Shown here piece after piece: positions 14,045 to 17,742 of a DNA stretch of 64,000 nt. Below the pieces are notes generated by a model, which saw nothing but the letters and a program-made list of their open reading frames with translations, searched no databases and was not told where the DNA came from. Source of the DNA: Candidatus Heimdallarchaeum endolithica (GTDB lineage Archaea; Asgardarchaeota; Heimdallarchaeia; Heimdallarchaeales; Heimdallarchaeaceae). The DNA lies in the NCBI GenBank assembly GCA_021513715.1, contig CP084167.1, positions 2,624,001 through 2,688,000 of the forward strand, in the 5' to 3' direction. A program made the translations under genes and the position numbers. How positions within the stretch are numbered: position 1 is the stretch's first letter; every line of letters starts with the position of its first letter.

Positions 14045-15484
14045 CTATTCTTTCACTCCTGTTTTCAAAGGAGGAAGTTCAGAAAAACGTTCAAAAAGAC
14101 GCCTATAGTCAATACTTGATTGAATTAATTCAATATGTGTTCCGTGAGCAACAAGCTTTCCTTTTTTTAAAATGATTATTTGATCTGCATTTTTTATAGT
14201 AGCTAAACGATGAGTAATAATGAAAGTTGTTCTCTCCTTTAATACATTAGCAATAGCAATCTGTATCTCTCTTTCTGTTTCAGCATCAATAGCACTACTA
14301 GCATCATCAAAAATTAAGATTTTTGGATTTCCCAATAAAGCACGAGCAATAGCAATTCTTTGTTTTTGCCCTCCAGAAAGCTTAACTCCTCTTTCTCCAA
14401 CAATCGTATCATATCCTTCTTCAAATGACATAATAAAATCATGCGCTTGAGCCAACTTTGCAGCGTGTTCAATTTCTTCTTGACTAGCTTGCGGTTTTCC
14501 ATAAGCAATATTTTCTCTTATTGTCTTGCTAAAAAGAAAAATATCTTGTTCTATAGCACCTATATTTTTCCTTAGACTAGACAAACTCATCTCTCTTAGG
14601 TCAATACCATCGATGGTTATTCTGCCCTCTGTAGGGTCATAGAAACGCATTATTAGTTTAATCAATGTAGATTTTCCAGAACCAGGAGAACCGATAATAG
14701 CTATAGTAGACCCTGCAGGAACATGAAGATCGATACGATCAAGAGTTTTCTCATTAGTATTGTTTCCATTGTAAGAAAAAGAAACATTTTCAAAAACAAT
14801 TTCACCTTTTGTTTCTAACCATTCTATAGGGATAATGGCTTCTGGAACGTATTCTTGTCTAGTTTTCATATTGTAAATTCTTTTTGCTGCAGCCATACCA
14901 ATTTGAAATTGAGTACTGGCCCAACCTAATTGCCATGTGGGAGAGTTCAAAGTCATTGCTAACATTACAAAAGAAACTAGTTGCGAAAGTGATATTCTCC
15001 CTTTTGTTACTTCAAAACTACCCCATAGAAAACTAAAAGCTATAACTAAAATAGTTATTAGAATAGGATAATACTTTGTGCTTAGTATTCCTCTTTGTGT
15101 ATTAATCTCTCGAAGCTTATCTGCTTGTATGTCAAAATAATTAATCTCTTCGTCCTCTTTCACAAAACTTCTGATTATTCTAATACCTGTTACACTCTCT
15201 TGTAAGAATTCATTAAGTCTGCTGTTCTGTTCAACTTGAGCTTTAGAAATTGGTTGTAATTTCTTGTTAAAATCATAAATTGTAATAATATAAAATGGTA
15301 ATGCAAAAACAAGAATTAGAGTAAGTTTTGGGCTGATATAAATCATAAGAGAAACAGAAAATAATATCGTAAAAAAACCTTCAAGTAAAAATTTTAACCC
15401 TGGAGAAATGAAGATATTCATCTGACGGGTGTCGTAAGTGGCACGAGCCATGATATCTCCAATACGGACTCGATCATGAAACTC

Positions 15485-15724
15485 ATGATTTACTTTTTGC
15501 GAAGTTTGTCGAACTTAGTCTTTCAAGAAAAAAACAAAGAAAGAGAATTGTTAGTTTCTTGAGAACTTAATCCTAACATACAATGAAAGAAGAAGGATTA
15601 AGGCAGACGTCATACACGAATCGGGGGAATCATAAAGAAGAGAAGATGTTCTCTTCACTCCACGAGAGACAAAAAAGAAAGAATAACTAGCCCTAAAATA
15701 GAGAAATTATCTTTCTTTTTGTCT
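15485..15724 (-). ncRNA. Predicted omegaRNA scaffold of element 1 (guide would be the flank 15484->15465)
   Basis: Consecutive hairpins between the tnpB stop and the right end: 15707-15724/15667-15686, 15649-15656/15637-15644, 15594-15602/15566-15574 and 15555-15562/15523-15530. G-U pairs favour the - strand; the position is typical of TnpB omegaRNA. Confidence 0.7.
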
Positions 15725-17180
15725 ACTGGGACTGCAACCAATGGCTGAGTCCTCGGCAAACAGTATAATGCGTAAGACTAAACTTTTGACCAGTAAAGTA
15801 ATCAGTAATAGTTGTAACACGGGGACGAAAAAGATGACTAAGGAACTTACGGGCAATATTTCTAGCCCCTGTTAAATCAGAGTGGTAAGTATAGTTACAA
15901 AAGGGACAGTGTATTAATCCTCTGACGGGACGAGAAACTTCTTTTCCACAACGGGAACAATGAGAAGATGTTCCTCTTTCGTCTATTATAAGAATACGAT
16001 GAGGAGCAAAACCTCTTAATATCAATGCTCGACGGAGAAGAGAAAGAACTAAAGAAAAATTCCACTGGTGAAGTTTTCTGCGAAAATAACGAGTATTTTT
16101 ACCTTTCCCTTTTTCTTTTCCTTTTCTGACATTTTTGGGGTAACCTACGACGACGAAAAGGTCATACATTTGAGCATAGGTCCCTATCGTCCGCACAACG
16201 TCGTTTATAAATTGGTGAATATAGGACTGTTTAACGTTTCTATATCTCCGACGAAGATATCCAAGAAAACGATAAATTTGGTGTTTTTTACCCGACTGGT
16301 CATTTAAAGCCGCTTTCCTCTGAAGACGGGAAAACTTGAGTTTATATCTGTGATTGATTCTATTCCACTGTTTGGTATACCAGAATTTTATCTCTTTGCT
16401 TGTTAACTTCTTTTTGGGAGTTAGTAACACTCCTACAGCAGGAATGTTTATCCCTAGATCTATCCCCAGCACAGCTGGGGGAAGAGAAGAAGAATTATTA
16501 ACTGAATAAGAAAAAGAAGAAGGAGGAAGAACTTCTAATTGAAAATATACCCACCACTCACTTGTAGAACGTTTATATCTCAGTTCTAAACTTTTTATCT
16601 GTCCTTTCTTTAACTCTTTCTGGTGGAAAGTGCTCATCTCTAAAGGTAACCACAATCGTTGATGATACCTTGTTTTTCTTTTCCACGTGTCTAATGAGTC
16701 TCTTATTCCTACCCACCAACGAGAAATAGAGTTATTTTTCTCTTTTGGTAAATTAGTAAGAATAAACCTATTCTTATTGATTAGTTGTCTTCGGGGTCTC
16801 TTTTTTGGAGGACGAGTGGCTTCAGGTCTATATCCTTGCTCGTACAGTTGTACTGCTATATCTCTACACTCTTGAAACTCATCATGAGAACAATATGGAA
16901 ACATCTTTTTAAGGTCATGAGGAACAGTCTCTCTTCGCTCTTCTACTTTTTTTAGCCTTGATGTTGTCAATGTTAGTTCATCTAGTTTTCCTCTATGTAC
17001 TCTTATTTCTCCTTTCTTTGTTTTCATACACAGTCTTCTTCTGTTGTGATGTATAATTTTTACATATTTTTCTATTATCCTTGTGTCTCTCCCTGTTATT
17101 CTCCTTAATCTTTCCTTTTTTCTCCTCGTCAAAACTTCATTTTTTATTTTTACTTTCAAAGTTTTGACTATCTTCTCCAT
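15723..17180 (-). CDS. tnpB: TnpB-like RNA-guided RuvC nuclease with rearranged RuvC-II
   Basis: RuvC-I VLGIDLG (D241); canonical RuvC-II position is VVVGYP (G346); alternative E401 in IDERGTSSHC; zinc finger C408/C411/C425/C428; RuvC-III HSDLTGARNI (D435); very basic protein. Confidence 0.9.
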   Translation of the reverse strand: MEKIVKTLKVKIKNEVLTRRKKERLRRITGRDTRIIEKYVKIIHHNRRRLCMKTKKGEIRVHRGKLDELTLTTSRLKKVEERRETVPHDLKKMFPYCSHDEFQECRDIAVQLYEQGYRPEATRPPKKRPRRQLINKNRFILTNLPKEKNNSISRWWVGIRDSLDTWKRKTRYHQRLWLPLEMSTFHQKELKKGQIKSLELRYKRSTSEWWVYFQLEVLPPSSFSYSVNNSSSLPPAVLGIDLGINIPAVGVLLTPKKKLTSKEIKFWYTKQWNRINHRYKLKFSRLQRKAALNDQSGKKHQIYRFLGYLRRRYRNVKQSYIHQFINDVVRTIGTYAQMYDLFVVVGYPKNVRKGKEKGKGKNTRYFRRKLHQWNFSLVLSLLRRALILRGFAPHRILIIDERGTSSHCSRCGKEVSRPVRGLIHCPFCNYTYHSDLTGARNIARKFLSHLFRPRVTTITDYFTGQKFSLTHYTVCRGLSHWLQSQ

Positions 17181-17742
17181 CTTTTTTCCTCTTCTTTTCC
17201 TTTTTTTCTTTTTCTTCTCTTCATTTATTTCTACTATTTTTTCTTATAAAAAGTCTCTTTTTTTTCTTTTTCATCCATACTCTCTATCCTAATGTTCGCA
17301 AAATTACGCAAAAAGTAAAGCATGGCTCTTTTTTAGCATATCATCATAAAATTCTTCTGTAACATTTTTTGTCACTTTGTGTGCTATAACCTCATTTGTA
17401 TAACTCTGTGTAAAATCAGCTAAAGTGCGAATAATTCCCGCTAAAGCAATTAATAAAGCAGTTTTTATAATTTCTAGAAACGAACTATTTTCTTTTGCTA
17501 ACTCATCAAAAATATCCCCAATTAACATAGGTGTAAAAGATACAGTAGCAATAAAGAAAATAAGGAAAAAAACCATAATACTTACTAGTTTCTTTTCTCT
17601 CAATATATGCTTAAATAACCATCTTTTATAACCCATATACAAACCTGCAATTTAATCTTATTCAAATACCGTTGATTAATCTTCTTTAAAACTTTTTTTT
17701 TAATGCATCTTTTTTACAATAAATAATAGTTTGAAGAGTTTT

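Follow-up and report, generated by a model that had tools for sequence, protein, structure and literature searches.

In Candidatus Heimdallarchaeum endolithica, the two halves of an ABC exporter gene lie on either side of a tnpB gene that shares its element with no transposase. What kind of element is this, which sequence is repeated when it inserts, and what could move it? We started from a 64,000-nucleotide stretch of contig CP084167.1 (positions 2,624,001 to 2,688,000; hereafter the window) and followed the element ends through the genome of H. endolithica (G000; one 3.327-Mb contig), that of its closest relative H. aukensis, and other Heimdallarchaeia. An earlier note, made from the window alone, served as the point of departure.

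A tnpB-only element with inverted ends interrupts an ABC exporter gene

Deleting positions 15485-17321 leaves a stop-free ORF of 586 aa. It aligns gap-free with the uninterrupted H. aukensis gene at 94% identity, which bears out the earlier description of both ABC halves as intact and in frame. The uninterrupted gene contains one CATG. Between the two species there are 83 synonymous and 15 non-synonymous codon differences; because these are mostly synonymous in both halves, the break in the exporter gene appears to be recent, as had been suggested. The partner ABC subunit (12227-14044) abuts the broken gene downstream and is intact; the insertion may be polar on it.

The only gene inside the element is tnpB, and only about 140 nt separate the left end from the tnpB start (Table 1). 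The terminal arms form the longest inverted pair in the region, with 25/30 matches when counted from the AT. The 27-bp inverted repeats described earlier (15488-15514 and 17294-17320) do match at 22 of 27 positions, and CATG is indeed present at both junctions (15484-15487 and 17321-17324). We observed no single-stranded DNA hairpin at the ends (folding z about +0.9), compared with z about -2 for the true IS605 ends of the same genome. Thus, the IS605-type hairpin ends that the earlier note had named as a refuting result were not seen, and its view that a tnpB-only element bounded by inverted repeats is unlike IS605 and IS1341 holds. An IStron test gave no group I intron at the left end and no Rfam match.

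Table 1. Features of the interrupted locus and of a mini-element in the window (window coordinates)
Feature	Position	Strand	Remarks
Whole element	15485..17321	-	1,837 bp, AT core counted once; deletion gives back the uninterrupted gene as in H. aukensis
ABC exporter subunit, 5' part	17322..17642	-	107 codons; ABC_membrane match
ABC exporter subunit, 3' part	14045..15484	-	ABC_membrane and ABC_tran; 98% identity to H. aukensis protein
Left end	17294..17321	-	Inverted-repeat arm with two TTTTGCG direct repeats, about 10-11 bp spacing
Right end	15485..15514	-	Inverted-repeat arm finishing TC-AT; second AT at 15485-15486
tnpB	15723..17180	-	485 aa; RuvC D241, alternative E401, D435; G346 at canonical Glu position; C4 zinc finger
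Predicted omegaRNA scaffold	15485..15750	-	Overlaps tnpB 3' end; finishes ...AAAUCAU; conservation stops after CAT
AUGAUU	15628..15633	-	Likely pseudoknot partner of terminal AAUCAU, by complementarity
Predicted 20-nt guide (host flank)	15465..15484	-	Matches the empty ABC allele right after CCAT
Left flank CCAT, predicted TAM	17322..17325	-	Ends in the AT core; CCAT in 6/6 subfamily copies, VCAT in the family
Putative archaeal TATA-like box	17244..17252	-	Purine-rich flanks; about 70 nt before tnpB start
M380 mini-element	7670..8046	+	377 bp, gene-less; AT-core end type

The TnpB looks intact and is predicted to be guided by a right-end RNA

Judged by its sequence, the TnpB is a predicted RNA-guided nuclease. 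D241, E401, D435 and the four zinc-finger cysteines are invariant in 62 homologues, which have Gly at the canonical Glu position; the alternative Glu (E401) lies six residues before the zinc finger (C408) and is found in non-Fanzor TnpB clades too. A structure model (pLDDT 87) matches Cas12f/TnpB folds. Together, the RuvC D-E-D triad, the C4 zinc finger, and a structured right-end RNA followed by a variable guide identify the protein as a TnpB. The likeness to Fanzors drawn in the earlier note stands for the architecture but not for kinship. RuvC-I reads GIDLG, with DLG in place of the DPG that serves as the criterion for pro-Fanzors and Fanzors (PMC10711439), and a pro-Fanzor identity was rejected; the window TnpB clade is instead sister to the Asgard aCas1-linked TnpBs.

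In that sister clade, tnpB genes stand back-to-back with genes for proteins of 1,600-1,900 aa that match Cas1 weakly (E = 0.004), and these TnpBs have the GTTCACTCA motif known from published aCas1-linked TnpBs (PMC10691335). This kinship would fit a derivative of the Asgard aCas1-TnpB transposons that is moved by aCas1. We consider such an origin very unlikely, since the unrelated TnpB clades B3 and B4 (see below) share the same ends, and tblastn and HMM searches found no aCas1 in H. endolithica, which already makes it improbable there; a general Cas1 search returned four ordinary-looking matches. Giant aCas1-like proteins (1,600-1,900 aa) divergent from TnpB were observed at L076, L077, L283, L285, L137, and L138, and at L076 and L077 tnpB is preceded by a GAGTGAACTC stretch with complementarity to the GAGTTCACTC motif downstream, like a tracrRNA-crRNA pair.

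The stacked hairpins noted earlier after tnpB were recovered: the 3' region of the element folds with z = -3.9, and 7 pairs covary across 11 copies. Relatives that finish in ACUCAU carry AUGAGU in a similar motif, so the likely pseudoknot partner changes with the terminal hexamer, each single hexamer match being weak (p about 0.05-0.16 in most). We infer a TAM of VCAT (CCAT for the window subfamily) and a guide starting at 15484, which would match the restored ABC gene, as had been predicted, beside a CCAT. At this locus, the start of the guide and the scaffold 3' end can form a 7-bp hairpin (15473-15489), and this pairing could weaken the guide of this particular copy.

The junction repeat is a 2-bp AT

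The earlier note had taken CATG as the duplicated unit and proposed that the flanks of other copies be compared to distinguish it from a 2-bp AT core. That comparison, together with orthologous empty sites, corrects the claim: only AT, 2 bp, is repeated. In target tallies gathered by hand from search outputs, AT was present at both junctions in 49/49 insertions, whereas the surrounding 4-mer matched in just 26/49. At GC-AT-A, TG-AT-A, and TC-AT-T targets, deleting the element and one AT restores the orthologous empty site. These two results rule out a 4-bp CATG duplication, and a 3-bp CAT duplication is ruled out by sister families that end in GAT. Coupling-sequence exchange of the Tn916 type was not evident either: in 6/7 well-aligned spanning cases, the base at +1, following the right end, equals that of the empty site, the exception (L010) being a one-base difference at +1. 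Duplications of variable sequence, which had been named beforehand as a refuting result, were not seen across copies. A 2-bp AT core and a 2-bp AT target site duplication (TSD) look the same in sequence.

Among the 49 targets, C occupies -1 in 46, while +1 is G in 37 and A in 10, and there is little information further out, giving a consensus of (V)C-AT-(G>A). Because the target contains ATG, several insertions disrupt start codons. Within the window, the gene hit by M380 is Nudix-like (7135-7671, minus strand), and the insertion lies at the CAT of its start codon.

Target choice also depends on the element's own right end. Elements ending in TC-AT, also tallied by hand, have T at target position -2 in 1/52 sites versus a 35% background (p = 5e-9). 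B3 elements and their mini-element end in TG-AT and are preceded by TC-AT in 10/11 cases, and B4-type elements with a TC-AT right end were inserted after TGAT or TTAT. This self-avoidance suggests that TnpB selects among sites, which would need precise restoration of the empty site. It parallels CboIStron of the IS607 family, whose TAM (TGGG) differs from its own right end (TCGG) (PMC10690162).

The same ends enclose unrelated TnpBs and gene-less elements

The H. endolithica genome holds 12 full-length copies of the element, at 80-100% identity, and the element is mobile. An end-motif scan of this genome found the same end type around three further TnpB lineages, of which B2 is related to the window TnpB and B3 and B4 are distant, and around two mini-elements without genes (about 380 and 355 bp). 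The TATA-like box reported earlier is also present, at an unchanged position, in copies of B1 and B4. B4 TnpB groups with a TnpB that adjoins an IS607 TnpA. At both ends, motifs spaced by 10-11 bp stand in inverted register around the core; the outermost bases differ between the two ends, so the tips are not conserved.

Relatives in other genera have the same architecture with different inner motifs. Family f5, which belongs to another order of the class, has up to 53 such ends per genome, and every resolved f5 element is tnpB-only or a mini-element. We searched by end motif for an autonomous copy in the H. endolithica genome, its relatives, metagenomes, viruses, and family f5 and recovered only tnpB elements and mini-elements; none of the resolved elements from two orders encodes a transposase.

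Two further observations concern the repeats of this genome. Directly upstream of a 457-aa gene (L359:473-2042; G000 2006472) lies a left end on its own, complete with TATA block. This relic has no matching right end, the gene has no Pfam match, and the left end may act as its promoter. The window also contains an IS481-like transposase gene (6067-7005) from a family of about 25 copies with TGT...ACA ends and roughly 15-bp duplications.

No tested enzyme is common to all carrier genomes

For each of Y1, IS607 TnpA, IS630, ISL2, IS110, aCas1, and tyrosine recombinase, at least one closed carrier genome has no copy or only a broken one, and none of the enzymes tested is common to all carriers.

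If a Y1 (HUH) TnpA moved the element in the way of IS1341, the AT repeat would be a coincidence between the left target motif and the TCAT of the right end. The TGAT, TTAT, and CCAT targets and the TCAN right end resemble IS605 cleavage motifs, which we counted in favor of this reading, and some sister-family ends do fold. The window element has hairpin-free ends, however, and its target is variable at -2 and biased at +1. Moreover, the only Y1 tnpA of H. endolithica (IS605; L013:1879-2248, about 925509-925883) is broken at codon 2-3 by an M380 copy, while the tnpB of the broken element is intact. The inserted copy is old (85% identical) and other M380 copies are up to 99.7% identical, that is, younger mini-elements continued to spread after the Y1 gene was disrupted. 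With no Y1 found in H. aukensis, G048, G051, or G054 either, we regard movement by Y1 as highly improbable.

A second alternative is cut-and-paste cargo: a DDE transposase acting in trans would duplicate 2 bp of the target (AT), with several TnpBs carried between its inverted repeats. The in-register arms of the ends, the near-palindromic target, and the existence of mini-derivatives are compatible with this, DDE transposases are abundant in H. endolithica, and DDE-associated TnpBs with inverted ends, including solo copies moved in trans, have been published (PMC10691335). Neither closed Heimdallarchaeum genome has an IS630 transposase (PF13358) or one of the ISL2/Harbinger type, and the resident multi-copy DDE families differ from the element in their ends and in the greater length of their duplications. 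The known 2-bp duplication of IS630/mariner elements is TA. The unconserved tips are likewise unlike typical DDE tips, and the lack of a transposase in the resolved elements of both orders adds to this. Overall, we judge DDE cargo to be unlikely.

No IS607 TnpA scored over the cut-off in either the H. endolithica or the H. aukensis closed genome, neither genome has an IS110-type enzyme, and H. endolithica has one tyrosine recombinase and H. aukensis none. The only two resolvase-domain genes of H. endolithica are a chromosomal serine recombinase, SR-A (G000 405351-406097; L003:1201-1950; 249 aa), and its paralogue SR-B (316725-317447; L002). Both have a truncated large-serine-recombinase build, with a catalytic and a recombinase domain only. 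If SR-A or SR-B were the mover, this would be a special case of IS607-like transposition. SR-A has intact catalytic motifs and a predicted Bxb1-like fold and is present in 28/30 genomes of its family, and its co-distribution with the elements looked promising but failed in family f5: it was not found outside its own family (0/52; 0/16), yet the same end architecture is abundant in f5. In addition, no SR copy lies inside such ends, and we think it doubtful that either protein is the enzyme. Because H. aukensis has no tyrosine recombinase match, SR-A might instead stand in for XerA. Among the heavy f5 carriers, G048 has a single ordinary resolvase and G051 and G049 have none, in assemblies that are 84-93% complete, and the mover could have been lost from these incomplete assemblies or be extrachromosomal.

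Discussion

With somewhat better than even confidence, we favor a TnpB transposon that is non-autonomous and moves in the manner of IS607, though at an AT core, with its enzyme supplied in trans and its retention driven by TnpB. A double-stranded DNA recombinase encoded elsewhere would bind the end motifs and exchange strands at the AT core, giving scarless excision, and the excised element would be inserted at new C-AT-G sites. TnpB, with its guide from the right flank, would then cut the rejoined empty site beside the VCAT TAM, and repair would restore the element; the occupied site would be spared because the TCAT of the right end differs from the TAM. The invariant AT (49/49), the empty sites, self-avoidance, the phased end motifs, the kinship of B4, and the unconserved tips make the IS607-like reading the most likely one. 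Against it stand the absence of IS607 TnpA from both closed genomes and f5 carriers with one resolvase or none.

With the IS607 family (IS607, IS1535, ISC1926, and CboIStron), the element shares a 2-bp core at both junctions, a TAM that takes in the core and departs from the right end in the sequence immediately before it (PMC10690162), and phased direct repeats at the ends (PMC6188088). One of the passenger TnpB clades, B4, is IS607-linked; the window TnpB comes from another clade. Three features set the element apart from IS607: its core is AT and not the GG of most members, its inverted repeats are in register, and it has no TnpA. True IS607 elements of the family (L244-L259) have ends other than the AT-core type; they carry an ORF-B of roughly 650 aa and ends of ACCGT/ACTGT...GTGCGT/GTGTGT, not GG.

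Other systems share less. With IS630-TnpB elements and Fanzors in TIR transposons (PMC10691335, PMC10711439), the common traits are a TIR-enclosed nuclease, a 2-bp junction repeat, and the alternative RuvC-II glutamate; the differences are AT rather than TA, no IS630 in the genome, DLG rather than DPG, and no sign of kinship with Fanzors. IS200/IS605 and IS1341 elements have the same tnpB-only build, right-end omegaRNA, and flank-derived guide, whereas the window element has no subterminal hairpins, inverted ends, and a variable target, and Y1 is absent or broken in most of the carriers searched. The Asgard aCas1-associated TnpBs (Cas1H-Asgard groups; PMC10691335) are the sister clade of the window TnpB; the window element differs from the aCas1-TnpB transposon in having no adjacent aCas1 and in its AT-core inverted ends and right-end omegaRNA.

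In our literature searches, we found no description of the AT-core family, although an earlier one in the work of Makarova et al. (2020) on aCas1 is possible. Inverted-end TnpBs, and solo copies mobilised in trans, had already been published in general terms (PMC10691335). New here are the proof from empty sites that the repeated unit is 2 bp long, the rule of self-avoidance, the finding that unrelated TnpB clades within a closed genome share their ends, and the elimination of candidate enzymes. We also put forward, tentatively, the broader proposal that unrelated TnpBs share this AT-core vehicle throughout the class Heimdallarchaeia and that the mover is host-encoded or an unrecognised recombinase rather than any known transposase.

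These data add one more end type to those of TnpB transposons, and do so in the class of archaea that is usually placed nearest to the eukaryotes. Used by at least three TnpB clades that are unrelated to one another, a single inverted-repeat vehicle offers a prokaryotic parallel to Fanzors switching transposon families, with no implication of ancestry. The junctions also yield predicted TAMs for compact nucleases: VCAT/CCAT for the element described here, and TCAT and TGAT in its sister families. Should the mover be a host protein or a new recombinase, the elements would represent a new route of transposition that requires very little of its target.
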